From positions 739,665 through 803,664 of the forward strand of contig OY970172.1 in NCBI GenBank assembly GCA_963707655.1: a stretch of DNA of 64,000 bases, read 5' to 3'. The number at the start of each line of letters is the position of its first letter. Position 1 is the first letter of the stretch. This document shows, piece after piece, positions 13,896 to 57,721 of this stretch. The notes under the pieces were generated by a model. It was not told the origin of the DNA. It saw nothing but the letters and a program-made list of their open reading frames with translations, and searched no databases. This stretch comes from an uncultured bacterium (GTDB taxonomy: Bacteria > Babelota > Babeliae > Babelales > Vermiphilaceae). The translations under genes were made by a program, and so were the position numbers.

Positions 13896-15608
13896 TCAAG
13901 CCCAAGGGGTTTCTTCTCTTTTTTTAAGTAACTTAATCGCTGTATCACCTTTTTTATTAACGTGATGAACATTAATTCCTGGAGTGTTTAAAAGAAGCTC
14001 AACAATATTTTGGCTATTTACACAATCAGCATACTCTTTTTTGTCGCTTTCTCTATACAAGGTCTTTATAGACTGTATAGCATTTATAAGAGCTGTATCC
14101 CCTGAGTCATTAGCATAGTTGATGTTAATCCCTGGCGCTTGCAAAAGAGCTCGCACCGCATCAATATTATGGCGTCGTATAGCGTGCATGAGGGGAGTAT
14201 CTTTATTCTCGCCTACATGATTAACATTCGTGTTCGCTTTTAAAAGAGCCTGTAAAATTTCTGTTCTCTCCTGCTCGGGACGATAACTGTAGCTATGATG
14301 GCTCATAACTTCAATAAGAGGAGTATTTCCAACCTCATCTGCACGATTAACATCAGCACCTGCTTGTATAAGATCTTTCACCACGGCTGCACGGCCTTCT
14401 TGTGCGGCACGTATAAGAGCTGTTGCCTTGCGTTTACCTGCACGATTAACATCAGCACCTGCCTTTATAAGTTCTCGCACCACGCCTGCATGACCTTCTG
14501 CGGCGGCCCGCATAAGAACTGTTTCACCGAGCCCATTTACAGTATTAACATTAGCGCCTGCTTGTATAAGCTCGCGTACCACCTCTGCATGGCCTTTTTG
14601 CGCAGCAACCCGAAGAAGACAATTGATATCATCATTTTTATTTTTTGCCTTTATGAGCTCTCTTACAATACCTACATAACCACGCGAGGCAGCATAGTAT
14701 GAAAGTGGGACCGTTTCATCCCTATCCCAGTCGCCATCGTGCAGAGAGTAAGTAATTCCTTCATTAACATTAGCACCAGCAGCCACGAGAGCTTTGAAAA
14801 CTTCAGTATAGCCACCTCTTGCAGCCTCTACAAGAGGAGTCCTACCAGATTTGTCTGCGATATTAACATCAGCACCCTCAGCTATAAGAAATTTAACAGT
14901 TTCCGTATGACCGCGAGCCGCAGCCTGGAAAAGAGCACTACTCTTAGACCCCGATGCGGCACCCGCATCTATAAGAACTTTAACAGTTTCCGTATGACCG
15001 CGATCCGCAGCTTTTACAAGAGCAGCACTACACCCAGGCCGACTATTGATATGAGCACCCTCAGCTATAAGAATTTTAACAATGTCGGTATGGCCTTCTC
15101 CGCAAGCCGCTACAAGAGCACTATACTCGGACTCAAACCCAGCATTAATATCAGCGCCTGCCTGTACAAGAGCTTTAACAATGTCTGCATGGCCTTTTCC
15201 GCAAGCCGCTACAAGAGCCGAAAAAGCGTTCTCAGGCTTATGATTAACATCAGCCCCTTTCTGTATAAGAACTTTAACAATGTCTGCATGGCCTGCATGT
15301 ATAGCCTTTATAAGAGGAGTAAGACCTCTGTGATCTCCAGCATTAACATCAACGCCCGCAGCTATAAAAGCTTTGACCGTGTCGGTGTCGCCTCCCTTTA
15401 GAGCTTCAAGGAACTTATCATGGTCATGGGGATCTTTTGTTGAAGCAGATTGGGTAAGACCAGTAAAAAAATCGCTAATTGCGCTCGAGATATAACGAAT
15501 AACAAGCCCAGGGCGATCTTCTACTGGAGCAGATGGAAACAAATATTCACCAAGCCAAATACAAAAAACAAAAAGTACAGCTACAAGAATCTTTTTGGAT
15601 AACTTCAC
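13896..15608 (-). CDS. ankyrin-repeat protein with N-terminal membrane anchor/signal
   Basis: About 14 tandem 33-aa repeats of the type G(x)TALxxAAxxGHxxVVKxLIxAGADVN. N-terminal hydrophobic KILVAVLFVFCIWLG. The plus-strand ORFs 14295-14702 and 14739-15401 are shadows. Confidence 0.9.
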   Translation of the reverse strand: MKLSKKILVAVLFVFCIWLGEYLFPSAPVEDRPGLVIRYISSAISDFFTGLTQSASTKDPHDHDKFLEALKGGDTDTVKAFIAAGVDVNAGDHRGLTPLIKAIHAGHADIVKVLIQKGADVNHKPENAFSALVAACGKGHADIVKALVQAGADINAGFESEYSALVAACGEGHTDIVKILIAEGAHINSRPGCSAALVKAADRGHTETVKVLIDAGAASGSKSSALFQAAARGHTETVKFLIAEGADVNIADKSGRTPLVEAARGGYTEVFKALVAAGANVNEGITYSLHDGDWDRDETVPLSYYAASRGYVGIVRELIKAKNKNDDINCLLRVAAQKGHAEVVRELIQAGANVNTVNGLGETVLMRAAAEGHAGVVRELIKAGADVNRAGKRKATALIRAAQEGRAAVVKDLIQAGADVNRADEVGNTPLIEVMSHHSYSYRPEQERTEILQALLKANTNVNHVGENKDTPLMHAIRRHNIDAVRALLQAPGININYANDSGDTALINAIQSIKTLYRESDKKEYADCVNSQNIVELLLNTPGINVHHVNKKGDTAIKLLKKREETPWA

Positions 15609-15869: not shown

Positions 15870-15944
15870 TGGCGTCCCCAGGGAGAATCGAACTCCCATT
15901 ACCGCCGTGAAAGGGCGGTGTCCTAACCGTTAGACGATGGGGAC
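15870..15944 (-). tRNA. tRNA-Glu (anticodon UUC), CCA encoded
   Basis: Hand-folded cloverleaf of the reverse complement: GTCCCCA TC GTC..GAC A CCGCC CTTTCAC GGCGG TAAT GGGAG TTCGATT CTCCC TGGGGAC G CCA. It closely parallels E. coli tRNA-Glu. Confidence 0.9.
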
Positions 15945-16051: not shown

Positions 16052-16127
16052 TGGTGAGCCGCGTTGGAATCGAACCAACGACCCACAGCTTAAAAGGCTG
16101 TTGCTCTACCGACTGAGCTAGCGGCTC
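16052..16127 (-). tRNA. tRNA-Lys (anticodon UUU), CCA encoded
   Basis: Reverse complement: GAGCCGC TA GCTC AGTCGGTA GAGC A ACAGC CTTTTAA GCTGT GGGTC GTTGG TTCGATT CCAAC GCGGCTC A CCA. Confidence 0.9.
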
Positions 16128-31098: not shown

Positions 31099-32664
31099 AT
31101 GAATAAACGCATTGCATTGATGCTGCTGGTAGCAGCCAGTTCTGCATCGCATAAAATGCTGGCGATGAGTCAGTGTTTTAACCCTGAAGGAAATCTTGAG
31201 GTAAAAGCCTTAAGCAAATCATTTTTCTCGGTGCGCCCTCCTTTTCAATTAAACTCTCCTGAATTTTTAGCAGGCTGGTGGTATGACCGCCTTGATGCAA
31301 AAGGCAAAGAATGCCGCAACGGCACGCTGCAGCTTGTTGGCCTTGGTGGAAAATCAACCGATGCCTACAACTTGGCTCGCTATTTTACCTTTAATAACAG
31401 TTCAGTGCTGCACATTGTGGAACAATCGGGCATCCCTGCCACTGATATTTTATCTGAACAAGTGGATATTTACAGCGTAGACGGCACTTTTGAAAGCTTT
31501 CTTGCTTTAAAGCCCCGCTATAGTTTTGGCGGATTGGGCATTTCTTACCGTCAAGAATTTGCGCAACGCAGTGATGGCCGCGCCTTCTGGTTCTTGGCAT
31601 CCGCACCAATAATCAATATTAAAACCGGCATGCATTTAGAAGAAACCATTATTAATGATGGTGGCGGTGTAAATCCGGCGGTTCCCGGCGCCGTGCCAAA
31701 TGCGGTAGAAGCGTTTTCACAAACAGCTTTTGATTTTGGCAAAATTTTGTGCGAAAACAAAACCAAAACCGGGTTGGGTGACCTTACCTTGCTCCTTGGT
31801 TACAAAACAATAGCTCATGAAGATTATAGCATGAATGGCTACATTGGTATGATCGCGCCAACGGGCAGCCGTGTAAAATCAAAAGAGATGTTTGAAGCGG
31901 TAGTTGGTAACAATCACCACTTTGGCGCCTTGCTTGGCAGCTCTGCCAGTGTTTCTCTCTGGGAATGTGAAAATGGCTCCTGCCTTGATTTTGAATTTAG
32001 CGCTCACGGTCAATTTCTCTTTAAAAGACATGAAGTGCGTTCTTTTGATTTGAAAAACAAACCATGGAGCCGCTACATGCAAATGTACGCGAACGTAGCC
32101 GCTGCAGAAGCAGCTTTTGCTGCCGACGATCTTTATTCAAATACAACACCGGGGATCAACATTCTAACCCAACCGGTACAAGTGTATCCCGGTTTTTCAA
32201 GCACCAGCAATACGGCAGTGGTCTTTACCTCATGCGATGGCAACAAACAATTTGAATTGGGCTACAACTTTTACGCCCGCCAATCAGAGTATGTTGAGCT
32301 TGCCTGCCCGTGGCAAGTGGGTCCGGCGCTTAAATCATTACTTGGTTTAGGTGGCGCAACCGACAGCGTGCAACAAATAGGCAATAACTATGGCGGCAAC
32401 AACGTAGTTAATCCCGATGGTGCTCCTGCCGTGTTCTCAGTTGCTGACTATAACAGCACGCAAATACAGGTAACCGATCTTGATCTGCTTTCTGCTACCC
32501 ATCCGGCAATCATCAGCAATACGGTGTATGCAAATGTAACCTACCGTTGCGATGCACATGAATATCCACGATTCATCGCCTTGGGTGGCTCTTATGAATT
32601 TGAAGAGGACAACACTACGTTGAACCGTTGGACCATATGGTTAAAAGGTGGCATTTCATTTTAA
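31099..32664 (+). CDS. outer-membrane porin-like protein, Legionella-MOMP-like family (paralog 1)
   Basis: Signal peptide. GLGDLTLLLGY...MIAPTGSRVKSKEMFEAVVGNNHHFGALLG. C-terminal WTIWLKGGISF. Clearly homologous to 35935-37773. Confidence 0.6.
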   Translation: MNKRIALMLLVAASSASHKMLAMSQCFNPEGNLEVKALSKSFFSVRPPFQLNSPEFLAGWWYDRLDAKGKECRNGTLQLVGLGGKSTDAYNLARYFTFNNSSVLHIVEQSGIPATDILSEQVDIYSVDGTFESFLALKPRYSFGGLGISYRQEFAQRSDGRAFWFLASAPIINIKTGMHLEETIINDGGGVNPAVPGAVPNAVEAFSQTAFDFGKILCENKTKTGLGDLTLLLGYKTIAHEDYSMNGYIGMIAPTGSRVKSKEMFEAVVGNNHHFGALLGSSASVSLWECENGSCLDFEFSAHGQFLFKRHEVRSFDLKNKPWSRYMQMYANVAAAEAAFAADDLYSNTTPGINILTQPVQVYPGFSSTSNTAVVFTSCDGNKQFELGYNFYARQSEYVELACPWQVGPALKSLLGLGGATDSVQQIGNNYGGNNVVNPDGAPAVFSVADYNSTQIQVTDLDLLSATHPAIISNTVYANVTYRCDAHEYPRFIALGGSYEFEEDNTTLNRWTIWLKGGISF

Positions 32665-32690: not shown

Positions 32691-34349
32691 ATGAATATCA
32701 AACAAAGCATACTACTCATCATGCTTTTTGCTGTCGCCGGCACTATGGCAATGGCCGCCAAGTACCCAAACACGAGTGTTGGCACGAACAAAGCTAATGC
32801 CGATGCAATGGCACTCTTAAAACAAGACATTTTTGGCGATACAGAGCTTACGGGTGTGACAAACATTATCAATCTCTTAAAAAGCAGAAAACAAAATTTA
32901 ATTGCTGCCAATCTAGAAAAAGCGCTTTATCGGAAAATTGCCGCTGGCAAGGAGCGTGATATCGAGACCTTGAAAGAAGGGATTAGAGCTAGAGCAGGAC
33001 AATTGGCCGGTCGAGAAGAAGAATACGCAGAGTTGGAAAACAAATATCGCGAAAAATTAGCACAAGCAGAAGAGTCTGCAGCAAGAGCTAATGATCTTAT
33101 GCAAGAGCGTGATAGCCTGCAACGTGAACTCGCAGACGCAACGAGCAAAGGGGACACAGCTGCAATCGACAAGCTCAAACAGGACAATCTTGATCTTCAG
33201 GTCCAAATAACAAGGGCCGCAACAGAGCAAGCTCAGGCTAAGCAAGCATTAGAGCTGGCTAAAGCAACAGCCGCAGAGGTAGAGCGAAAATTTAACGAAG
33301 AAAGACAAAGAGCTCTTGATGCCTTCACGGAACAGATTAATGATATTGTGAATCATTCAAAGCAATTGGCATCGGATATTGGAAAATTATTAGGTGATGA
33401 TGCAACACGCGCTGCAACACTGCCTATTTTATTATCTTCAACTAAAGAATCGCTTGACGTAGTTGCCCTTCGTGCTCAAGATGACAAGAAACTGCAAACA
33501 GCTTTACTCAACGAAGCCAACAACCACCAAAGTAGTGTTAAAGATTATGCTCGTTGGATAATTATTAATGCGGCTCAAGGTGGGCATAAGTGGGCAGAAG
33601 ACGCGTTAGTTAAGAATACGCACCTGGTAAAAAATGGTACAATTGAAGTACCAGCGCTCCATGAGTGGAGCCGTGATGCAATTGTACTTATGTCACCACA
33701 GTATGATTGGGCATTTAAAAAAGTAGTCGCATTGCTCGATCATAACGACAATGAACCTGCGCTACAAACGTTTGCCAAAGTGCAAGCTGACAAAGGCAAT
33801 GCGAACTTTGCAAAATATTTAGTGGAAAAAGCTGTTTATGCCGCATGGAACTATGATTCTAAGCTCGGCACAGACTACGGCACATGGGTTCTGTGTATTC
33901 TCAAGAATAGCTCAGCAGCAGGGAGAGCTTGGGCTAGAGACGCAATTAAGGCAATGGCCAGCGAGCAATTAGAAATGTTTAATGACCTTCATTACAAATT
34001 TACCAGTGAGAAGATAAGAGGAGCGATACGCAACAAAAACAGCGAAAAAACTTACATAGATCAAGCACGCGCATGGGCTGTCAACCCAAACTACAAATGC
34101 TCATACACGCCGAATAATGCTTACGCAGGAAAAAAACTTCCTGCGCAACCAAAAACGGGACGTTACAAAGTGCCTAAGCGGCCTGACTATATCCCTGAAG
34201 ATACTTCTAAGCCTGTCGCGTCGCCTAGCGAGCCTGCTGAAGAGTCTGAAATGCCAGAGCCAGTAGCAGAGCCTGTTGCATCGCCTAGCGAGCCTGCTGA
34301 AGAGTCTGAAACGCCAGAGCCAATTGGAGGAAATCCTTTTTCTGATTAG
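32691..34349 (+). CDS. secreted coiled-coil protein with acidic Pro/Glu repeat tail
   Basis: Signal peptide ILLIMLFAVAGTMAMA and a long heptad-rich region. The C-terminus carries the duplicated motif VASPSEPAEESE[MT]PEP. Confidence 0.6.
   Translation: MNIKQSILLIMLFAVAGTMAMAAKYPNTSVGTNKANADAMALLKQDIFGDTELTGVTNIINLLKSRKQNLIAANLEKALYRKIAAGKERDIETLKEGIRARAGQLAGREEEYAELENKYREKLAQAEESAARANDLMQERDSLQRELADATSKGDTAAIDKLKQDNLDLQVQITRAATEQAQAKQALELAKATAAEVERKFNEERQRALDAFTEQINDIVNHSKQLASDIGKLLGDDATRAATLPILLSSTKESLDVVALRAQDDKKLQTALLNEANNHQSSVKDYARWIIINAAQGGHKWAEDALVKNTHLVKNGTIEVPALHEWSRDAIVLMSPQYDWAFKKVVALLDHNDNEPALQTFAKVQADKGNANFAKYLVEKAVYAAWNYDSKLGTDYGTWVLCILKNSSAAGRAWARDAIKAMASEQLEMFNDLHYKFTSEKIRGAIRNKNSEKTYIDQARAWAVNPNYKCSYTPNNAYAGKKLPAQPKTGRYKVPKRPDYIPEDTSKPVASPSEPAEESEMPEPVAEPVASPSEPAEESETPEPIGGNPFSD
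34211..34321 (+). repeat. 60-bp in-frame tandem duplication (1.85 copies)
   Basis: 34221-34259 is nearly identical to 34281-34319 (TCGCCTAGCGAGCCTGCTGAAGAGTCTGAAA[T/C]GCCAGAGC), at an exact 60-nt period. Confidence 0.85.
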
Positions 34350-35840: not shown

Positions 35841-35934
35841 GGCTATATTTTTTTACGCGGTAGTTGTCATCCGTTGAGCGCGGATGTATTATCTAAAAAT
35901 CAGTCTTGATGATAGTATAGCAAAAAAAGGAATA

Positions 35935-37773
35935 ATGGTGATGCGCATTTTTCGTGATATTATTTTTTTCATATTTTTTCTGCATTCTTTTGCTTATGCG
36001 GAGCAAAACTCAACTCCTTTCTTTAATGCCCGATCTCAAAATGAAGATTCTACTCGCTGGCTGGTTGGTTGGACCCATCAAGTTAACCGTCCATGCGCAC
36101 AACAAAAATATTACACGCTTGCCATAACGCCAGCTTATAGCCAAACCTTTAAGTCTCTTGATTTGGCCCAATCTCTTTTTGGCAGTGACTTGATTGAGCC
36201 AGGTTTTGATACCCCATATATTACCATTTCCGGCAGCGCGGTTAATGGCCGATACGCGGTAAATCAATGGCTGGCCGATTATTTTGGCCTACCGCCCGAT
36301 TTTCAAAGTAATGTATTTTTTAAGCCGAGTATAAAAAACTCTATGCTCGATTTTAATCTGTATGTCGGCTTTTCTGACTGGGCAGAGGGTGCGTATATTA
36401 ATATTTTTGGTCCCTTGGTGTATACACGCTGGGATCTGGGCATGTCTGAAATAATAATTAGTCCCGGCAGCCTCGGTTATGCACCCGGATATTTTAATGA
36501 AACGGGCGTGCCACGCGCAAACCTGCTTAATAGTTTTACACAGTTCATTGCTGAAGAAAAAGCACCGGTTATAGATGATGTCACCACCTTTATGCCATTG
36601 CGCTCTTCTAAAATGGCCAATCGCGCACTTCACAAAATAGGATTTGCTGATTTACAAGTAGTTGCCGGCTACAACTTTATTCAAGATGAAGATTATCATA
36701 TCGGCGGCAATCTGCGCCTGGTAATTCCGACCGGTACGCGCCCTAAAGGTAAATTTTTATTTGAACCGATCGTTGGCAATGGTCATTTTTTTGAAGCGGG
36801 ACTTGGTTTTTCTACTCATGGTATTATTTGGGCCGATGTTGATCGCACACAAGAAATTGCCTTTTATCTTGAGGTATGGGTGACTCATCTTTTTTCCACG
36901 CTGCAACGGCGGGCATTTGATCTCAAGCTTGGGGATAACAGCCGCTACATGCTCGCGCTTGGTATGACCGATCTTATCAGTGGTGGATTGTCAGACGAAT
37001 CGGGGAAAGCTCCAAACTTTCAATATGATGAAGCGTTTAATCCCGTTGCCAATTTAACTACTATGCCCGCATGGGTCTCTGTTCCGTGGCAAGCGGATAT
37101 TACGCTGCTTTTTAATTTTACTCATCACAATCTTGAAGCTGATTGTGGTTTTAACTACTGGGTGCGTCAACCGGAACAGATAAAAACAATTAAATATGGC
37201 TGTGCCAATCCGGTTACCGTGCAATCATGGGCGTTAAAAGGAGATGCACAAATGTTTGGCTTTACTACCGGCACTCATGACCCCGTTGCGCTTTCTGCCA
37301 CTGAAAGCAATGCGACCATTCACGAAGGAGGAAATGTACTTATGAGCAATAGCAGCACCGCGGGCCAGGTTAATAATAATCTTGGCATCGATAATCCTGT
37401 GCCCGCTTATGCAGCCGGCATTGAATTATTAAATAGTAACTTTGATGCACCAATTAATACTTCTTTCCAGCCGGTATTGCTTGCCAACAAAAGCATTGCC
37501 CATTGCCGCTCAAGCACACAGGGGCTTTCGTATGCGGCCTTTATAAATCTTAACTATGTTTGGAACAATGAAAGCTGTTGGTACACCCCATATTTGGGTG
37601 GCGGTTGCAAAATTGAAATAGCTCCTGATGGGCCAAATAACACATGCCCAAGCGTCTGCACGGCAAATTCCATACCAAATTCTCTATGCGGTTTTTGTGA
37701 TGAAGACATTCGCCTTCAAGTGAATGCCTCGCAATGGACAGTGTGGCTTAAAGGTGGCGTTCGCTTTAATTAA
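35935..37773 (+). CDS. outer-membrane porin-like protein, Legionella-MOMP-like family (paralog 2)
   Basis: Signal peptide MRIFRDIIFFIFFLHSFAYA. GFADLQVVAGY...LVIPTGTRPKGKFLFEPIVGNGHFFEAGLG. C-terminal WTVWLKGGVRFN. The start could be 35935 or 35941; the track start at 35884 is less likely. Confidence 0.6.
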   Translation: MVMRIFRDIIFFIFFLHSFAYAEQNSTPFFNARSQNEDSTRWLVGWTHQVNRPCAQQKYYTLAITPAYSQTFKSLDLAQSLFGSDLIEPGFDTPYITISGSAVNGRYAVNQWLADYFGLPPDFQSNVFFKPSIKNSMLDFNLYVGFSDWAEGAYINIFGPLVYTRWDLGMSEIIISPGSLGYAPGYFNETGVPRANLLNSFTQFIAEEKAPVIDDVTTFMPLRSSKMANRALHKIGFADLQVVAGYNFIQDEDYHIGGNLRLVIPTGTRPKGKFLFEPIVGNGHFFEAGLGFSTHGIIWADVDRTQEIAFYLEVWVTHLFSTLQRRAFDLKLGDNSRYMLALGMTDLISGGLSDESGKAPNFQYDEAFNPVANLTTMPAWVSVPWQADITLLFNFTHHNLEADCGFNYWVRQPEQIKTIKYGCANPVTVQSWALKGDAQMFGFTTGTHDPVALSATESNATIHEGGNVLMSNSSTAGQVNNNLGIDNPVPAYAAGIELLNSNFDAPINTSFQPVLLANKSIAHCRSSTQGLSYAAFINLNYVWNNESCWYTPYLGGGCKIEIAPDGPNNTCPSVCTANSIPNSLCGFCDEDIRLQVNASQWTVWLKGGVRFN

Positions 37774-37803: not shown

Positions 37804-38808
37804 ATGTGTACCGGTATTCGTTTAAAAGCGGAAAATAAATCAATCATCTATGCACGCACCTTGGAGTTTGGCCAGGAGACCGCATCAAACATTATTATGA
37901 TTCCCCGTGAATATGAATTAAAAAGTGAAGCATCGCAAGGATTGTCTTGGCGCTCGCGCTACGCAGTTGTCGGTGCAAACATGCTCAATATCACCGGTGT
38001 TGTTGACGGCGTGAACGAAAAAGGGCTCGCCGGGGGTCTCTTTTATTTTCCTGGATATGCAGCGTATCAGAAAATTTCTGCCGATGAAATGGCACAATCG
38101 ATTGCTCCTTGGGAGTTGTTGACCTGGATCCTTACGACTTGTGAAACTGTTGATCAGGTGCGCACCGCATTACCAAAAATAAAAGTAGCAGAAATTGTTT
38201 TTAAAGAATGGAGCATAGTGCCACCCATTCATGCCATCGTACATGAAGCGCAGGGTAAAAGTCTGATGATAGAATATATTGCAGGTGAATTGGTAATGCG
38301 TGATAACCCATTGGGTGTTATTACTAATTCTCCTTCTTTTGATTGGCACATGATTAACATGAGCAACTATATTAATCTGAGTGCAACTAATGCAGCGGCG
38401 CTCAAATCTAATGGATTATCATTTGCGCCACTGGGCCAAGGCTCAGGCATGCTTGGGTTACCCGGTGATTTTACGCCACCGTCACGCTTTATTCGCGCTG
38501 CATTTTTTAGTCAGTCTGCACAAGATATAAAAACAGAACATGAAGCATGCAAGACAGCATTTCGCCTTCTTGATCTTTTTAATATTAGCGTTGGCCTGGT
38601 GCGTGAAACGCAAGAAGGCAAAAATTATTACGATTACACGCAATGGACAAGTGCAGCTGATCTAAGCAATAAACGTTATTATTGGCACACGTATGATAAT
38701 CGCCAAGTACAAATGGTTGATCTTATGCAGATGAATATTACCGGCAAAGAAACAACCATTATCAAAATGCATTATGATGAAATAAAATATGATCACTCAA
38801 AAGAATAG
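37804..38808 (+). CDS. choloylglycine hydrolase-family Ntn hydrolase (linear amide C-N hydrolase)
   Basis: The N-terminal MCTGIRL places the nucleophile Cys at position 2. ITNSPSFDWH block. 334 aa. Confidence 0.8.
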   Translation: MCTGIRLKAENKSIIYARTLEFGQETASNIIMIPREYELKSEASQGLSWRSRYAVVGANMLNITGVVDGVNEKGLAGGLFYFPGYAAYQKISADEMAQSIAPWELLTWILTTCETVDQVRTALPKIKVAEIVFKEWSIVPPIHAIVHEAQGKSLMIEYIAGELVMRDNPLGVITNSPSFDWHMINMSNYINLSATNAAALKSNGLSFAPLGQGSGMLGLPGDFTPPSRFIRAAFFSQSAQDIKTEHEACKTAFRLLDLFNISVGLVRETQEGKNYYDYTQWTSAADLSNKRYYWHTYDNRQVQMVDLMQMNITGKETTIIKMHYDEIKYDHSKE

Positions 38809-46122: not shown

Positions 46123-48126
46123 ATGATACGTATGATAAAAATAGCGCTTGTGCTCGGGCTATATTCCTCTTTTTTGATCCATGGCGCTGAAATTCCCGCT
46201 CAAAATTGGGATGTATCAATACAATGTAGCGACGGAACGGTTCACTTAACTCAACAGGAATGGGCTTCTCTCGTGAATGCATCTGAAACAATGAGAGATC
46301 TTGCAAATAATAGCCAGCAACCAGAAGACAATGCGGTGGTTCTAGACATGTCTACGATGAATAAAGAGAGACTGAAGCGTGTATTATCTCTTATACAAAA
46401 TCAAACAGATATTAACAAAAAGCTGCAAACACTGAATTTTGAAGAACAACTATACTTATTCGGAGATAGTGATTTTCTGAATATTCCCTCCATTCTTCAT
46501 CCTTTAAACCCCATCATAATTGAAGGTTTATCTGCAGATAAGGGTAATTTTTTGAAAGAATTCTCCAAAAACAAACAGGATGCCGTGATACGCTTAAGCT
46601 CTTATGGCATCGATATGAGCAACACTGATATTGGCTACGGCATGATTAAGCCCCGCCTCAATGATCTATGGGCTCCTTCGGTCATGCGTCTTACCGGCCA
46701 TACAAATGACATAACGTCAGTAGCATGGAGTCCCGATGGCACCAAGGCTGCCTCTGGATCATGGGATAACACTATACGCGTAAATGATTCTCGTACGGGA
46801 GCTTTGCTCCTAACGATCACCGGCCATACAGATGCGATTACCTCAGTGGCATGGAGTCCTGATGGCACCAAGATTGCCTCTGGCTCACGCGATGAAACGG
46901 TATGCATCTGGAATGCTGCCACGGGCCAGCTGCTAAAAACGCTGCGGCCGCCTGCTGCATCTGTTATTACATCAGTAGCATGGAGCCCTGATAGCACCAA
47001 GATTGCCTCTGGCTCACGCGATGAAACGGTATGCATCTGGGATGCCGCCACGGGCCAGCTGCTAAACGTGCTGAACGGCCATACAGACATTGTCACATCG
47101 GTAGCATGGAGTCCTGATGGGACCAAAATTGCTTCCGGTTCGCAGGACAAAACAGTACGCATCTGGCACGCTGACACGGGCCAGCCGCTAAACGTGCTCA
47201 ACGGCCACACAGACATCGTCACATCAGTGGCGTGGAGCCCTAATGGCACCAAGATTGCCTCCGGTTCGTATGACAAAACAATACGTATCTGGGATGCTAT
47301 CACACACCAGCAGTTAAACGTGCTCAGTGGTCATACAGACATCGTCACATCAGTGGCGTGGAGTCCAGACAGCTCCAAGGTAGCCGGCTCACACGGCAAA
47401 ACGATACGCATTTGGGACGTCATTACAAGCCAGCCATTATATACGTTGGCCGACCTTAAAAAAATAAGTAATCCTACTCCTAATAACCGTCCTGCGCTTT
47501 CTCCTGTTGCGCGCGCGGCTCTTCCTAGACTTTTCGTGTTTGGTGGTACGTTTCTTTACGCCGTTGTTGGATATCTTGCCTTCTTGCGCCCTGGCACGGT
47601 TAAAAGGAGGCGTGAAATAAATGAAATGATCACCCTTAATAATACCTACAAACACAACACCAGCTTTGAACCAGGCCCTCTTCTATCAACAAATATGGCG
47701 CGTCTTGATGCAATCTATGCCATACTTCTCGCCCCACTTGGTGTCCTCGCTGGCCTGGATAGCATACCTATACTCAAAAGTATCACTCAGAAACACCTTG
47801 CTCCCGAGCGCATTACTTCAGTGGCATGGAGCCCTGATGGCGTCAAAATTCTGTCTGGTTCAACAAATAGGCTTGTTCGCATCTACGACGTAAAGCCACT
47901 TTTTTTTATTCGACACATTACCATGCTAGAAGCCTTTGAGCTGCTTACCACTTTTCAAGACAAGCCACTTGCGGTTGCGCAAGAGCTCTTTGATGCAATA
48001 ATATTTAAGAAAATAGAGAAACAAGAAACATACAAGCTACCATTATCGAAAAAAGAGGTAATTCAATCGCTTGTGCGCACGCGCAACAACCCAAAAGCTT
48101 CTTCTTCGAATGCTACTCAACAATAG
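46123..48126 (+). CDS. WD40-repeat protein with signal peptide and an internal two-TM insertion
   Basis: AAGGAG SD and signal peptide MIRMIKIALVLGLYSSFLIHGA. Six contiguous blades follow the pattern HTDxxTSVAWSPDGTKIASGSxDxTxRIWD. Two hydrophobic helices come next (FVFGGTFLYAVVGYLAFL and AIYAILLAPLGVLAGL). A seventh blade (ERITSVAWSPDGVKILSGSTNRLVRIYD) ends the repeat region. Confidence 0.85.
   Translation: MIRMIKIALVLGLYSSFLIHGAEIPAQNWDVSIQCSDGTVHLTQQEWASLVNASETMRDLANNSQQPEDNAVVLDMSTMNKERLKRVLSLIQNQTDINKKLQTLNFEEQLYLFGDSDFLNIPSILHPLNPIIIEGLSADKGNFLKEFSKNKQDAVIRLSSYGIDMSNTDIGYGMIKPRLNDLWAPSVMRLTGHTNDITSVAWSPDGTKAASGSWDNTIRVNDSRTGALLLTITGHTDAITSVAWSPDGTKIASGSRDETVCIWNAATGQLLKTLRPPAASVITSVAWSPDSTKIASGSRDETVCIWDAATGQLLNVLNGHTDIVTSVAWSPDGTKIASGSQDKTVRIWHADTGQPLNVLNGHTDIVTSVAWSPNGTKIASGSYDKTIRIWDAITHQQLNVLSGHTDIVTSVAWSPDSSKVAGSHGKTIRIWDVITSQPLYTLADLKKISNPTPNNRPALSPVARAALPRLFVFGGTFLYAVVGYLAFLRPGTVKRRREINEMITLNNTYKHNTSFEPGPLLSTNMARLDAIYAILLAPLGVLAGLDSIPILKSITQKHLAPERITSVAWSPDGVKILSGSTNRLVRIYDVKPLFFIRHITMLEAFELLTTFQDKPLAVAQELFDAIIFKKIEKQETYKLPLSKKEVIQSLVRTRNNPKASSSNATQQ
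46690..47430 (+). repeat. 126-bp tandem coding repeats (WD40 blades) with high nucleotide identity
   Basis: Long near-identical stretches such as AAGATTGCCTCTGGCTCACGCGATGAAACGGTATGCATCTGG occur at about 46871 and about 47000. AACGTGCTxAACGGCCAxACAGACATxGTCACATC is also repeated. Confidence 0.85.
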
Positions 48127-53250: not shown

Positions 53251-53562
53251 CCTCTTTTTTATAGTGCATTGAAAACAACTTTTTGACCGTGTCTTAATAT
53301 AAATCTTTTTGTGCTACTTTACCAGAAAAAACCCAAGATTTTGCAGCTGTCGAATGATATGTTTGATGCCACCATACCGCATCGAGTTATTTATGTAATG
53401 ATATCGCCGGAAACGTTATTAGAAATAGCCTTTTGCTTCACACGCTTTTATTGAATTATAATTTCAAATATAAACATGTGTTGACAGTGGTTGCTGTTTT
53501 TGTGGTAAAATTGCATTAATAAAGATAATTTCTCTATGCTCATGGTAAAATAAGGAAATTTC

Positions 53563-56500
53563 ATGAATTTTAAAACAATTTTATATACATTCATGTTAAT
53601 GTTGACCCCTGCACTTCTCCATGGAATGGCACAACCGCCACAACCGGTTCAGTCTATTGCCAATGATGCCAAAGCACGAGTAACCGAGGCCATACAAAAA
53701 AACGATTTTGCGGCAGCACAAAAAGTCATCAATGAATTACAGATCACACACCAGAGCGTCAGGGCTCCAGGGCCAGCATCTGTCCTGGCAGACATGGTAA
53801 AACAGTTGCAAGTAATTTTGCAGCAAGCAATGGCGAATTATCAACAACTGAATCAGCCGATAGCTCCCGCGCCACAACCGGCATTAGTTCTGCCTGCACC
53901 TAAATTTAATCCCCAAGCTGGGATGCTCCCAAAACCTCAACCCGCGCCGAGCACGCCAGCGCCAATGGCCTATCCGCAAGCGGGGATACTCCCAACGCCT
54001 CAGCCAATGCCAGGAGTTATACCTGCACCTAAATTTAATCCCCAAGCTGGAATGCTCCCAAAACCTCAAGCCGCACCGAGCGCGCCAGCGCCAGTGGTCT
54101 ATCCGCAAGCTGGACGACTACCGGCATATCAACCGGTTCCAGTGAGCTATTCGCAGCAACCAGCGCAATCACCAACAGCTCAGCTCATGCCAGGAGTTGT
54201 ACCTGGACGCCTACCGATACTTCAACCAGCGTCACCAAATACCCCGGCAACACCGCAAATAATGCCTGGACAACAACTCCAAGGACAACCAACGCCAGTA
54301 GGCTACCCGCAAGCTGGTCGACTGCCTACACCAGCAGCCCCGGTGGTAAATCCGCCCCAACAAGCTCCATCGTTGCGGGGGCAGCCCGTTGTCCCGGCAC
54401 ATGTACTTGCAACAATGGCAAAGAACAAACCGGCACTCTATCCTGCAATGGCATATCTAGGGCAATACATGCAATCACCAGCACCAAGCGCACCAGCAAA
54501 CATTGCGGCTGGACAGCTGCAAGTACCGGCTGCAAATGAAATCCCCACGAGCATAGAAAATTTATCAGAGATGGAGGCGAAAACCGCGATAATCAAAGCT
54601 CTTCTTCATGGTATAGAACAAGGAATACGGGCCGGGAATACCTTCAATGCCATTGCTGCAAAAAATTGCTGGCTCCAGCATGTAATGCAGGAATGGGGTG
54701 CCGGTGCCGCCTATCAAAAATATGTTGAAGATACAATTATCAAAGGGGTCAAGAGCCGCTATGGGTCGCTGGACACAAGCAATCAGAACACCGTAAATGC
54801 GTTCATCAGAGCCAGCGCGAGCGACCCACTTTTTGCAGCGGCTTATATATTTACTTTAGACAAAGCGGCTTTCCCTACCGTTGCAAACACTATCAAGTCT
54901 TATCAAGTCTTTAATCCATTGCAGAATCAGATAGATCAATTCATTAAAGATCAAGAGTATGAAAAAGCCATTAGTTATGCTTACCTTTTTAAGGATTTGA
55001 GTTCAATATACCGTGAAAATCGAAGTCCTCAGCAAAACACCGCAGGAAATCCTTTTTTGCTTGATACATTAACAATGGCCCCAGATACGTTTAAGAATAT
55101 CGATGAGCAATTAAAAGGGTTATTGAGGGTCAATGACAATACAAAAATCAGAGAGATGATTAATAATTTGTATGCAGAAAAAAAATACATCACTGCCAGT
55201 TATGTGTGGATGATTTCATCAGCATACAATGTCGTTTACTCTCAAATCCCAGCAGCAACAAGTGCAAATCAGCCCGCCGCCAGCGAGATAACGGATAGCG
55301 CTCCGTTCAATATTGCCTTTGATCAGTGGTACAGCAGCTGTAACGCGGCGCTACAAAATTCTGCGGTTAAACCATTATCTTTTGATGCATTTAAGCAGGC
55401 CATGAATATATTCATAAATAAGACCAAAGCACGATTTGCCAATGCAAATAAATGGTTCAACACCGATAACTTGAATACCAATATTCCCGAAGGAAACATA
55501 CCTTATGTTGAACGCGTGCATATTCCCAAAGGCTCTATTGTTGGGTTCCATGCTGATATTCATGGCAACGTGCAGGCATTAAACAGTTATTTGAGAGCGC
55601 TTGCAGATAAAGGTTATCTAGATAAGCAGAACCAATTTAAAATAGCTGATCCTAATTTTTACCTCATATTTTTAGGGGACTATGTTGATCGCGGCATTTT
55701 TGGCGTAGAGGTTTTATACACTCTCATGCGCTTAAAACTCACCAATCCCGATCGTGTATTCTTGGCACGCGGGAACCATGAAGACGCAGACTTCCAAAAC
55801 GTGCTGCCTAATGGCCTACTTACCAGAGAAGTGGCTACCAAATTTGGCGTTCAGATTGAGAATGAGCTTGCCAAACTCCTTCCATCGCTCTATAACTGCC
55901 TGCCTGTTGCACTATACACACAAGTGGGCAATGCAGCTAAAAAAGAATATATTTTGTGTTGCCATGGTGGTTGGGATGTAGGTTATGATCCAGTGCCGTT
56001 TTTAACAGCAAATAAAACCTACCATGCTTTTGATACGCTACATTACAAAGACATACTTGATCAATTACCCGGTGACATTCGCACCACACTTCAATCGTTT
56101 GCCAACAGGTATCCGCGAGGCGCGGGGAAATACACGCAAAATCCTAAAATAACAGATATAACTAGTTTAGACTTTTTGTGGAACGATTTTTATTATGAGG
56201 ATGAAACAACAGTTGCTGAATTCATGGACGGGAGAGGCTTGCAAATGGGCCAACCGCTCATACAAGCGCTTCGTAGCCTGACGGCACACAATGGTATTAA
56301 TATTCAGGCTATTTTTAGAGCGCATCAGCATTCCGGCCTCAGCAGAGCCCCAATGTGGATGCGCGCAATGGTCGATAATAAAGTTACTAAATTGTGGCCA
56401 CTTGCAAGATCTGCGGACCCTGCCCTATGGCTCGGCATGGTTATTACCTTTTTAGTTTCACCTAATGAAGGATACCCAAATACCTTTGATTCCTGGGGAG

Positions 56501-56649
56501 AATTGCACGTGGGAGACGATTTTGTCTCATCAAGCATGGAAACGTTCCAAAATAATAAAAATGTCGGCATCAAGACTGAGGTCCCAACGCCAAGTCCATC
56601 GTCGCGTTCGTTATTCCCCATGTCCTTTGGATCATCGGAACAGCTATAA
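53563..56649 (+). CDS. large secreted protein: Pro/Gln-rich repeats plus a C-terminal PP1/PP2A-like (PPP family) Ser/Thr phosphatase domain
   Basis: Signal peptide MNFKTILYTFMLMLTPALLHG. PPP motifs: ADIHG (55552-55566), LGDYVDRG (55672-55695), RGNHE (55768-55782), CCHGG and FRAHQHSG. Confidence 0.8.
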   Translation: MNFKTILYTFMLMLTPALLHGMAQPPQPVQSIANDAKARVTEAIQKNDFAAAQKVINELQITHQSVRAPGPASVLADMVKQLQVILQQAMANYQQLNQPIAPAPQPALVLPAPKFNPQAGMLPKPQPAPSTPAPMAYPQAGILPTPQPMPGVIPAPKFNPQAGMLPKPQAAPSAPAPVVYPQAGRLPAYQPVPVSYSQQPAQSPTAQLMPGVVPGRLPILQPASPNTPATPQIMPGQQLQGQPTPVGYPQAGRLPTPAAPVVNPPQQAPSLRGQPVVPAHVLATMAKNKPALYPAMAYLGQYMQSPAPSAPANIAAGQLQVPAANEIPTSIENLSEMEAKTAIIKALLHGIEQGIRAGNTFNAIAAKNCWLQHVMQEWGAGAAYQKYVEDTIIKGVKSRYGSLDTSNQNTVNAFIRASASDPLFAAAYIFTLDKAAFPTVANTIKSYQVFNPLQNQIDQFIKDQEYEKAISYAYLFKDLSSIYRENRSPQQNTAGNPFLLDTLTMAPDTFKNIDEQLKGLLRVNDNTKIREMINNLYAEKKYITASYVWMISSAYNVVYSQIPAATSANQPAASEITDSAPFNIAFDQWYSSCNAALQNSAVKPLSFDAFKQAMNIFINKTKARFANANKWFNTDNLNTNIPEGNIPYVERVHIPKGSIVGFHADIHGNVQALNSYLRALADKGYLDKQNQFKIADPNFYLIFLGDYVDRGIFGVEVLYTLMRLKLTNPDRVFLARGNHEDADFQNVLPNGLLTREVATKFGVQIENELAKLLPSLYNCLPVALYTQVGNAAKKEYILCCHGGWDVGYDPVPFLTANKTYHAFDTLHYKDILDQLPGDIRTTLQSFANRYPRGAGKYTQNPKITDITSLDFLWNDFYYEDETTVAEFMDGRGLQMGQPLIQALRSLTAHNGINIQAIFRAHQHSGLSRAPMWMRAMVDNKVTKLWPLARSADPALWLGMVITFLVSPNEGYPNTFDSWGELHVGDDFVSSSMETFQNNKNVGIKTEVPTPSPSSRSLFPMSFGSSEQL
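53893..54150 (+). repeat. 129-bp in-frame tandem duplication encoding PAPKFNPQAGMLPKPQ[PA]APS[TA]PAP..YPQAG
   Basis: The copy starting at 53893 (CCTGCACCTAAATTTAATCCCCAAGCTGG) recurs at 54022 with few mismatches. Confidence 0.85.
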
Positions 56650-56660
56650 AAAGACGGATT

Positions 56661-56697
56661 GAAAAGCTCTCGCGCATCCAACTGACGAGAGCTTTTC
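56661..56697. terminator. bidirectional hairpin between the convergent phosphatase and ligase genes
   Basis: Perfect 12-bp stem GAAAAGCTCTCG (56661-56672) / CGAGAGCTTTTC (56686-56697). It overlaps the ligase stop codon by 2 nt. Confidence 0.65.
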
Positions 56698-57721
56698 AAT
56701 CTTTAGGCCCTATTGCTTTGGGAACTTCTTTGACTACGTCTTTGGCATCTTTATCATCACGCAGTCCTTTATAGCGCCCTACGCGAAGCTTATTTGCTTG
56801 TGTCCAATTTGCAAAATGGACCTCGGCTACCATTACAGGCTTCACCCAGAAAATATCTTTTGTCTCTCCATCATAATTACTAAAAGGGCATTTTGCGGTA
56901 GTTATTTTTGCCAATTTTTTTCCAAGCATTTCAAGCACCGTCTGAGTATAACCGGTACCTACCTTGCCCGCGTATACAAGTTTTCCTTTATCGTAGTAGC
57001 CGACCAACAGAGCGCCAAAATATGTACGCGCACCTTTGGGTTTGGTGTACCCACCAATAACCAATTCCTGTTGCATGATGCATTTGAATTTAAGCCAATC
57101 GTGTGAGCGAACCCCAACATAGGTGCCATCGATACGTTTTGCAATAAGTCCTTCCCATTTCAGTTGGCACGCCTTTTTAAAAAATGCTACGCCATTGCCC
57201 ACTTTATGTTCGGTGTAGACAAGCATTTTATTGTAATCAAGCAGCTTTTTTAAGAGCTCCTTGCGCGCATACAGTGGCAAATTGCGTATATCATATCCTG
57301 CAACATACATGAGATCAAAGATACAATATTGAATCGGAATACTTTTTTCTTTTGTTGTACCGGCTTGGCTATTGATCCGGCCCTGCAACAATTGAAAATC
57401 TGATACCCCCGCTTTGTTTTTGCTTACTATTTCACCATCGATAATAAAATTATCTGCTTTCTGCTTGAGCAAGGCATCTACCAGCTCGGGATAGGTATTA
57501 TTCATGCTTTTTTGATTGCGCGATACAAGATATACTTTGCCTTTTTTCTTAATCACCAGGCAGCGTTCCCCATCAAACTTGTGTTCGTAAAGCCAATCAT
57601 TGCGGGAGAAATACTCTTTTGTGAGAGTCGCCAGCATGAGTGGCATGAATAACGGTTCGTCTGTTTTTTTACGTTTTTTTAAATTTTCTGCAGAGAGGCC
57701 GGTAAATAGATCTTTTTTCAT
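56696..57721 (-). CDS. ATP-dependent DNA ligase (adenylation + OB domains only)
   Basis: Motif I EHKFDGERC (KxDG), motif III CIFDLMY, motif IV WEGLIAKR and motif V DWLKFK. 341 aa. Confidence 0.85.
   Translation of the reverse strand: MKKDLFTGLSAENLKKRKKTDEPLFMPLMLATLTKEYFSRNDWLYEHKFDGERCLVIKKKGKVYLVSRNQKSMNNTYPELVDALLKQKADNFIIDGEIVSKNKAGVSDFQLLQGRINSQAGTTKEKSIPIQYCIFDLMYVAGYDIRNLPLYARKELLKKLLDYNKMLVYTEHKVGNGVAFFKKACQLKWEGLIAKRIDGTYVGVRSHDWLKFKCIMQQELVIGGYTKPKGARTYFGALLVGYYDKGKLVYAGKVGTGYTQTVLEMLGKKLAKITTAKCPFSNYDGETKDIFWVKPVMVAEVHFANWTQANKLRVGRYKGLRDDKDAKDVVKEVPKAIGPKD

Follow-up and report, generated by a model that had tools for sequence, protein, structure and literature searches.

Introduction

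Bacterial members of the eukaryote-like branch of the PPP phosphatase superfamily were surveyed by Kerk et al. (Sci Rep 11:13681, 2021; PMC8249667), who gave criteria that separate EukaryoticPPP-Like from BacterialPPP-Like enzymes. Their census found such enzymes to be rare in bacteria: it holds 59 sequences, most of them from Deltaproteobacteria or Firmicutes, with two Dependentiae proteins listed, and Verrucomicrobia go unmentioned in its main text and part of its supplement. WipA and WipB of Legionella are Dot/Icm substrates with GDLHA, GDELVDR and NHG motifs, in which an N-terminal phosphatase is followed by a C-terminal targeting domain (PMC5572681). In Chromulinavorax destructans, a cultured member of the Dependentiae, 44% of all proteins bear signal peptides, a share that rises to 78% among those with ankyrin repeats, and effectors have been proposed to leave the cell by Sec export (PMC6561590). 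Here we analyze a 64,000-nucleotide (nt) stretch of DNA, referred to as the window, from an uncultured bacterium (GenBank assembly GCA_963707655.1, contig OY970172.1, positions 739,665 to 803,664 of the forward strand), in which one gene is predicted to encode an exported, eukaryote-like PPP phosphatase of 1028 amino acids (aa), hereafter the 1028-aa PPP.

The Dependentiae parasitize protists, occur widely and have hardly been cultured; we know of no presumed effector from this group with known activity. The window belongs among them by its ClpB, whose named relatives are all Babeliales, Dependentiae or TM6 (68-72% identity; the best relative is 87% identical). The reading we favor is that the 1028-aa PPP is a Sec-exported, catalytically competent eukaryote-like metallophosphatase of a protist symbiont, directed at the host and carrying an extension that targets or tethers it; taken as a whole, we put this statement a little short of an even chance, and its parts are of different strength.

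A PPP phosphatase module predicted to be active

The gene is an open reading frame (ORF) starting at ATG, with the coordinates, strand and length given in an earlier note made on this DNA from its sequence. Its C-terminal part forms the phosphatase module.

53563..56649, + strand: whole gene, 1028-aa ORF from ATG; predicted exported eukaryote-like PPP phosphatase with a lineage-specific N-terminal extension
55300..55527, + strand: family-specific helical lead of the phosphatase module, aa 580-655, with F-x-x-W-x-x-x-C (FDQWYSSC) at aa 586-593 (family consensus and paralogue alignment; predicted local distance difference test score (pLDDT) 85-96 where modeled)
55528..56562, + strand: PPP catalytic core, aa 656-1000 (Metallophos; AlphaFold2 (AF2) model; Foldseek)

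The ORF is not an assembly artifact. Two other assemblies, probably from the same sample, are 100% identical to the window along the gene, and a third, slightly differing assembly retains the complete 1028-aa frame (P0002). A stop-free run of this length could not plausibly have arisen by chance at 42% GC.

The profile search that the earlier note had proposed matched Pfam Metallophos (PF00149) to aa 664-923 (E = 6.6e-15, 56.5 bits vs. a cut-off of 21.5). The five PPP motifs named in that note are all present, as ADIHG (aa 664-668), IFLGDYVDRG (aa 702-711), LARGNHE (aa 734-740), CCHGG (aa 799-803) and FRAHQ (aa 918-922), the one correction being that its LFLGDYVDRG reads LIFLGDYVDRG. The catalytic and metal residues D665, H667, D706, D709, R710, N738, H739, H801 and H921 are all kept, and D665, H667, D706, N738, H739, H801 and H921, which correspond to PP1 D64, H66, D92, N124, H125, H173 and H248, are invariant in 86 sequences of the bacterial family described below. 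D875, R891 and Y971 are additional putative clamp or diagnostic residues. The sole deviation in the canonical PPP motifs is G664A in the first of them (GDxHG). Family-specific insertions lie in the core after HGG (aa ~805-870) and after RAHQH (aa ~925-960).

The AF2 model of aa 610-1028, built on a 61-sequence family alignment, has the beta-sandwich metallophosphatase fold (pLDDT 87.1, predicted template modeling score 0.89); it lacks the first ~30 residues of the module, which leaves the catalytic analysis unaffected. Since all nine catalytic and metal residues named above, D709 and the first clamp Arg, R710, included, are invariant, the enzyme should be active, and we regard it as very likely that the 1028-aa PPP is an active PPP-type phosphatase. 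Following the known PPP mechanism and the conserved residues, D665, H667, D706, N738, H801 and H921 would hold a two-metal centre, H739 paired with D709 would serve as the general acid, and R710 together with loop residue R891, placed by D875, would clamp the phosphate of a phospho-Ser/Thr substrate.

The domain on the eukaryote-like side of the superfamily

The best 60 sequence matches in the PDB were all eukaryotic PPPs, both for the single protein (PP1 on top, E = 3e-10) and for the 61-sequence family profile (BSU1, calcineurin, PP1, RdgC and PP2A at E = 1e-29 to 1e-25). The same held for the best 50 Foldseek matches in the PDB (PP5, PP1, PP2A, calcineurin and RdgC; E ~5e-16 to 4e-14, 16-20% identity), with a probability of 1.00 and a target-normalized template modeling (TM) score of 0.63-0.70 for the catalytic-domain chains of PP5, PP1, PP2A and calcineurin. 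In a viral structure library, giant-virus PPPs matched at ~1e-15, vs. ~1e-8 or worse for phage lambda-type enzymes. With hhalign, the family profile aligned to PP1alpha (reference identical to 1FJM_A) over 202 columns up to the RAHQ motif (E = 2.8e-26, score 189, 27% identity), and to lambda phosphatase (reference equal to 1G5B_A save one C-terminal mismatch) over 124 columns, in the N-terminal half only (E = 4.2e-8, score 61). NCBIfam PrpE scored 14.8 bits vs. a cut-off of 340.

Diagnostic residues were compared with those of PP1. W873-N-D875 aligns with PP1 W206-S-D208 in both hhalign and MAFFT, making D875 the Asp208 equivalent, and Asp occupies this position in 86 of 86 family sequences. 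Motif 6 reads V-S-P-N-E-G-Y971 vs. S-A-P-N-Y272 in PP1, with a 2-residue insertion; the Tyr is present in 69 and the Pro in 84 of the 86 sequences. The “DP” doublet of the eukaryote-like enzymes is D-F in the family (F in 83 of 86), and variants of this doublet have been reported in bacterial “region C” sequences (PMC8249667). Together, the sequence comparisons, the predicted fold and these residues give good support for placing the catalytic domain, as the earlier note had proposed, on the eukaryote-like side of the PPP superfamily and not with PrpA, ApaH or lambda phosphatase. Its further assignment to PP1/PP2A proper did not hold: the nearest relatives are bacterial proteins at 31-49% identity, PP1 reaches 27% over the 202 columns, no residue of the 1028-aa PPP stands at the position of PP1 Cys273, and the equivalent of Tyr134 is Leu.

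The family shares with the EukaryoticPPP-Like bacterial enzymes six PPP motifs, the Asp208 equivalent replacing the bacterial second clamp Arg, and a SAPNY-like motif-6 Tyr; it also has a conserved RG in the following loop, whose register against PP1 Arg221 is ambiguous by 1-2 residues. It differs from them in its signal-like N-termini (in most members), its Trp/Cys lead, the DF doublet, the 2-residue insertion in motif 6 and the two large insertions. Compared with eukaryotic PP1, PP2A, PP5 and calcineurin, the fold (Foldseek E ~1e-15 to 1e-16), the metal ligands, the general acid, the first clamp Arg and the near-identical GDYVDRG, RGNHE and RAHQ motifs are alike, whereas identity is 16-27%, and the 1028-aa PPP lacks Cys273, has Leu for a Tyr134 that the rest of the family keeps, bears extra lead helices and insertions, has bacterial nearest relatives and no known regulatory-subunit context, and is predicted to be exported where the eukaryotic enzymes are cytosolic. 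With lambda-type PPPs (PrpA/PrpB, lambda phosphatase 1G5B) it shares the first four motifs and the metallophosphoesterase core; in contrast to them, the family has the eukaryote-type Asp and a probable loop Arg where they have the domain-3 Arg, and its C-terminal half is of the eukaryotic type.

The likeness to eukaryotic enzymes could also be explained by a recent horizontal acquisition of a eukaryotic PP1/PP2A from a protist host or a giant virus, an idea consistent with the best solved and viral structure matches (eukaryotic and giant-virus PPPs) and with the PP1-like motifs GDYVDRG, RGNHE, CCHGG and RAHQ. It is effectively refuted by the distance to eukaryotic PPPs (16-20% identity by structure, 27% over 202 profile columns) as against more than 200 bacterial proteins that are 31-49% identical over ~85-93% of the domain, by the family's own lead helices, two large insertions, missing Cys273 and DF for DP, and by the nesting of the 1028-aa PPP in a Dependentiae clade.

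Nor is there support for an effector of the WipA/WipB type, the Legionella type IV-secreted PPP-fold family that the earlier note had offered as a precedent in the form of WipA. The analogy is general: an intracellular bacterium combines a PPP-fold phosphatase with a non-catalytic module, which in WipB directs localization (PMC5572681). The motifs are different here (ADIHG, GDYVDRG and GNHE), as are the domain order and the secretion route, with a predicted N-terminal Sec-type signal and a C-terminal phosphatase, and neither WipA nor WipB turned up among the 60 top-scoring PDB sequences or the top 50 folds.

Relatives in Dependentiae and Verrucomicrobiota

A homology search with the catalytic part found 232 proteins. 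Five relatives, 440-530 aa long, are 45-49% identical to the 1028-aa PPP; more than 100, their median length being 492 aa, are 31-37% identical across ~85% of the domain. The small number that are named carry the labels Verrucomicrobia, Pedosphaera, Babeliales or Kapabacteria. A scan of one genome per species, in a reference set that does not include the genome of the window, yielded at least 293 loci of the family, the best match to the 1028-aa PPP being 40% identical, as compared with the 59 sequences of the EukaryoticPPP-Like census (PMC8249667); the loci here are mostly from Verrucomicrobiota and Dependentiae. Among the best 80 of the 293, the labels are Dependentiae/Babeliales/TM6, together with unclassified small genomes clustering with them, and Verrucomicrobiota, with few others.

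In a neighbor-joining tree rooted on PP1alpha, the 1028-aa PPP groups with its five closest relatives in one clade, placed among Dependentiae sequences, and Verrucomicrobiota form a separate clade. By a simple heuristic, a signal-like N-terminus is present in 25 of 30 Dependentiae-like and 33 of 44 Verrucomicrobiota members, or ~75-83% of the family. Lead helices with a conserved Trp and Cys, and two large insertions, set the family apart from PP1. On these sequence criteria the 1028-aa PPP belongs to an uncharacterized bacterial family of ~490 aa, mostly signal-bearing, found in Dependentiae and in free-living Verrucomicrobiota, and we found no paper describing a PPP family of Dependentiae and Verrucomicrobiota. 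The earlier note had held that a wide occurrence of close homologs in free-living bacteria would speak against its reading; this is partly what was found, with Verrucomicrobiota carrying homologs.

Several Dependentiae-like genomes have at least two family copies, some of them in tandem: L006 (ends 3378 and 6062), L059 (ends 1557 and 4491), OY968766.1 (L026 and L048) and CAVXAV01 (L027 and L028). Such multiple copies point to a lineage-specific expansion. Other members have extensions of their own (L071, ORF ending 5907; L078, ending 4898; L005, ending 6746; P0011; P0019), including a 1526-aa ORF, a 418-aa N-terminal lead and C-terminal additions of ~130-300 aa, all unrelated to the extension of the 1028-aa PPP.

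A probable duplicate of a canonical copy

Very probably, the same genome encodes a canonical 446-aa paralog (P0246); no second family copy was found within the 64-kb window. P0246 is at least 90% identical to the relative P0004, and its residues 17-445, the mature length past its own signal peptide, align to aa 565-1002 of the 1028-aa PPP at 44% identity, the lead at aa 580-655 matching the mature N-terminus of the paralog immediately past the signal peptide. Because this alignment begins after the signal peptide of P0246, the extension of the 1028-aa PPP would sit between its signal peptide and a complete family module. About 555 aa are inserted there, and 663 aa precede the first catalytic motif, vs. 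a family median of 140 and maximum of 255, i.e. ~520 aa above the median. This 1028-aa architecture is known in one lineage only.

In 58 alignment columns with a family conservation of 90% or more, the 1028-aa PPP departs from the consensus seven times, the joint maximum among the 86 sequences (median 1). The deviations are G664A, G749P, F753L, E805D, G870D, G940K and W990S, with no catalytic residue among them. Two of them abolish the YGF motif (YGF to LP..L), which corresponds to PP1 Tyr134 in the substrate/toxin groove. The best reading of these alignments is that the 1028-aa PPP is a derived duplicate of the canonical 446-aa copy, with an altered substrate groove.

Export signal and N-terminal extension

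Upstream of the phosphatase module, the gene and its leader region were divided as follows, together with the tail behind the core.

53481..53511, + strand: possible promoter, TTGACA at 53481-53486, a 19-nt spacer and an extended -10 TGgTAAAAT at 53503-53511 (weak, picked out by eye)
53553..53556, + strand: Shine-Dalgarno-like AGGA at -10 to -7, 6 nt before the ATG (sequence reading)
53563..53631, + strand: signal-peptide-like N-terminus, aa 1-23, MNFK + TILYTFMLMLTPALL + HGMA, then Q24 (hydrophobicity heuristic)
53641..53850, + strand: three-helix bundle, aa 27-96 (AF2 single-sequence model, pLDDT 75-92 in aa 27-96 only)
53851..54417, + strand: disordered Pro/Gln-rich repeat region, aa 97-285 (~190 aa; 27% Pro, 12% Gln; pLDDT 31-50, without secondary structure)
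53886..54142, + strand: 129-bp tandem duplication, 53886-54013 and 54015-54142, two 43-aa units 83% identical (repeat analysis)
54418..55299, + strand: orphan all-helical region, aa 286-579 (~295 aa; helical with low confidence in AF2; without homolog)
56563..56646, + strand: Ser/Pro-rich disordered C-terminal tail, aa 1001-1028, ending in …TEVPTPSPSSRSLFPMSFGSSEQL (composition; pLDDT < 50 for aa 1014-1028)

The AGGA precedes the first ATG, and this start, hence the signal peptide, is therefore favored over the Met13 start of one gene call (P0003). In a promoter and terminator scan the number of sites was not above that of shuffled sequence; the consensus promoter scan covers spacers of 16-18 nt, a range outside which the 19-nt-spaced candidate at 53481..53511 falls. 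In line with the signal-peptide-like start described in the earlier note, the protein begins like a Sec substrate: TILYTFMLMLTPALL is the most hydrophobic 15-mer of the whole protein, Lys4 provides the n-region, and G-M-A offers small residues at -3 and -1. By this heuristic, export of the 1028-aa PPP is probable.

Behind the signal, a confidently predicted three-helix bundle comes first. Its recurrent Foldseek matches are MIT domains (katanin p60, MITD1, Vps4, ULK3 and NRBF2; TM 0.6-0.66), all non-significant (E > 2), and Pfam gave no MIT match for aa 27-96 even at E up to 10. Three-helix bundles readily match one another structurally. Because of this ready cross-matching and of the missing Pfam match, we hold the MIT likeness of the modeled bundle as a weak lead and not as a finding.

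The Pro/Gln-rich stretch that follows was given in the earlier note as ~280 aa; it exists, at ~190 aa and preceded by the bundle. The 129-bp tandem duplication reported there was recovered in two copies, with a nested sub-period of 63-66 bp that gives five copies of a [YF]xPQAGxLP core. The 129-bp copies, still 83% identical, show that recent tandem duplication has been lengthening the linker.

The next part, described previously as ~300 aa of motif-less helical sequence, corresponds to aa 286-579 and is indeed without a detectable relative; the boundary needs the qualification that the conserved phosphatase module starts at ~aa 580. When aa 280-615 were searched exhaustively with phmmer against 1.84 billion representative proteins, the sole match was the protein itself. 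In a word-based search with the full-length protein, whose candidates were dominated by low-complexity words, only the protein itself was among the matches listed. Pfam scans of sub-regions of the extension gave nothing significant, with PspA_IM30, UVR, PepSY_like and Vps54_N as sub-threshold noise, and no internal repeat was found in aa 286-579. The single-sequence AF2 model of the extension is poor (pLDDT 45 overall; ~35-45 in the orphan domain) and informative for the three-helix bundle alone, and Foldseek gave no significant match with this N-terminal model. At the other end of the protein, the Ser/Pro-rich tail is missing from the closest relatives, the paralog alignment stopping at aa 1002.

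Such an extension could also belong to a decaying or neutrally drifting duplicate, in which non-functional filler, generated de novo and by expanding repeats, makes up the N-terminus and the enzyme loses its function. The orphan character of the extension, ~190 aa of low-complexity repeat, the tie for the most divergent member at family-conserved positions and the occurrence in a single lineage are all consistent with it. We nevertheless consider decay improbable: the 1028-codon frame is intact, has a ribosome-binding site and is retained in the slightly differing assembly; the nine catalytic and metal residues and the predicted clamp residues are kept, and the seven changes avoid them; the three-helix bundle is confidently folded even without an alignment; and genomes of ~1.1 Mb seldom retain 3 kb of junk.

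Genomic setting

The 1028-aa PPP gene lies between an M23 peptidoglycan peptidase gene on one side and a LigD-like ligase gene on the other, neighbors that differ from those of the canonical copies. The relatives P0004 (L086 1533-2873, from the same sequencing run) and P0006 (L083 6001-7335, from another sample) are directly upstream of PBP1a, and in L083 MurG and a PASTA-like gene are near P0006. Across 80 loci no neighbor was conserved in Dependentiae, Verrucomicrobiota showed lineage-level synteny only, and no Pho or kinase genes were found.

These settings bear on the proposal that the 1028-aa PPP is an extracytoplasmic housekeeping enzyme of the periplasm or cell surface, which scavenges phosphate from organic or protein-bound sources or carries out an envelope-related dephosphorylation, uses its Pro-rich part as a spacer as in TonB-like tethers and has no host target. 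The proposal fits the abundance of the family in free-living Verrucomicrobiota, with mostly signal-like N-termini, the cell-wall genes beside the canonical copies (PBP1a, MurG and the PASTA-like gene) and beside the 1028-aa PPP gene (the M23 peptidase), and the Pro-rich stretch without eukaryotic ligand motifs. Against this, no phosphate-uptake or Pho-type genes are linked in the 80 loci, no neighbor is conserved across the Dependentiae loci, and features that set protein phosphatases apart from general esterases are kept (a probable two-Arg clamp, the Asp208 equivalent and a SAPNY-like motif). Moreover, because a canonical copy is probably already in the genome, the divergent long copy is more likely to be functionally distinct. 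On balance we judge a housekeeping role to be rather unlikely.

As the earlier note had pointed out, the window also encodes ankyrin and WD40 proteins. The 667-aa WD40 protein (46123-48126, + strand) has a hydrophobic signal-like start, its leader ending in LIHGAE (cf. LLHGMAQ in the phosphatase), and the 570-aa ankyrin-repeat protein (13896-15608, - strand) has a hydrophobic signal-like N-terminus. Three ORFs of 521, 552 and 629 aa (31099-32664, 32691-34349 and 35884-37773, + strand) have signal-like starts and no Pfam family, and are candidate secreted orphans. The putative Sec-type signals of these ankyrin, WD40 and orphan proteins resemble those on the ankyrin proteins and secreted ORFans of C. 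destructans (PMC6561590). The putative effectors of that bacterium are a class defined by prediction only, and host delivery is a proposal for them and for the 1028-aa PPP alike.

Other genes of the window include a 341-aa ATP-dependent DNA ligase (DNA_ligase_A_M and A_C, LigD-like; 56696-57721, - strand), which is convergent with the phosphatase gene, 46 nt from its stop, and as a repair gene is unusual at a genome size of ~1.1 Mb. The window further encodes TamB, a choloylglycine hydrolase/linear amide C-N hydrolase family protein (CBAH, E = 1e-77; 37804-38808, + strand) and two tRNA genes (15873-15944 and 16055-16127, - strand), the latter being its only Rfam matches.

Discussion

The favored reading of the 1028-aa PPP as an exported, host-directed phosphatase would involve a duplication within the Dependentiae lineage, followed by gain of the bundle, the Pro/Gln linker and the orphan helical domain. 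The product would pass the inner membrane by Sec and act on phosphoproteins of the host beyond the bacterial cytoplasm, the extension serving to tether or target it. A duplicate that has received a unique N-terminal module and a changed groove fits a pattern typical of host-interaction proteins. The proposal of a host-targeting effector, made in the earlier note, retains the predicted export signal, the origin in Dependentiae of obligate-intracellular type, the ankyrin and WD40 proteins of the window with signal-like starts and the orphan N-terminus; it is weakened by the free-living homologs and by the poor precedent of WipA. Circumstantially, the lifestyle of the Dependentiae, the paralogs and the divergence of the long copy also fit it. 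Host direction of the 1028-aa PPP therefore stays a tentative assignment, with the balance tilted slightly against it.

Several observations weigh against this assignment. Free-living Verrucomicrobiota carry the family at least as commonly, so that host manipulation cannot have been its ancestral role. With ~44% of Dependentiae proteins bearing signals, a signal peptide says little about host targeting, and its prediction here rests on a heuristic. Neither a secretion system nor a chaperone or conserved partner gene was found in linkage with the phosphatase gene. No targeting function can be read from the orphan domain at a pLDDT of ~35-45, and in aa 97-285 canonical ligand motifs for SH3 (class II), WW and EVH1 domains are absent, with one class I-like site present. 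The seven substitutions, including G664A and the loss of YGF, could reflect relaxed constraint and not a new function. The loop G890-R891-G892, 16 residues past D875 and present in at least 90% of the family, is off in register by 1-2 residues relative to PP1 Arg221 in both aligners, and the family tree is a neighbor-joining tree without bootstrap and with a single outgroup.

A more specific form of the host-directed reading takes the orphan N-terminus as a new host-targeting module, in which an MIT-like bundle would engage host ESCRT-III or a related membrane remodeler, and the linker and helical domain would place the phosphatase on host membranes. We consider this form quite unlikely. If true, it would make the 1028-aa PPP the first mechanistically defined Sec-dependent phosphatase effector in Dependentiae.

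For the biology of the Dependentiae, a predicted secreted enzyme that combines an intact, assayable active site with a lineage-specific addition offers a tractable entry into their symbiosis. The hundreds of mostly export-signal-bearing members in Verrucomicrobiota and Dependentiae suggest that the bacterial side of the eukaryote-like PPPs is under-sampled, and students of phosphatase evolution may find the family as interesting as the 1028-aa gene itself. If this signal-bearing family is borne out, it would be a major unrecognized bacterial branch of the eukaryote-like PPPs, with a bearing on the origin of the eukaryotic enzymes.

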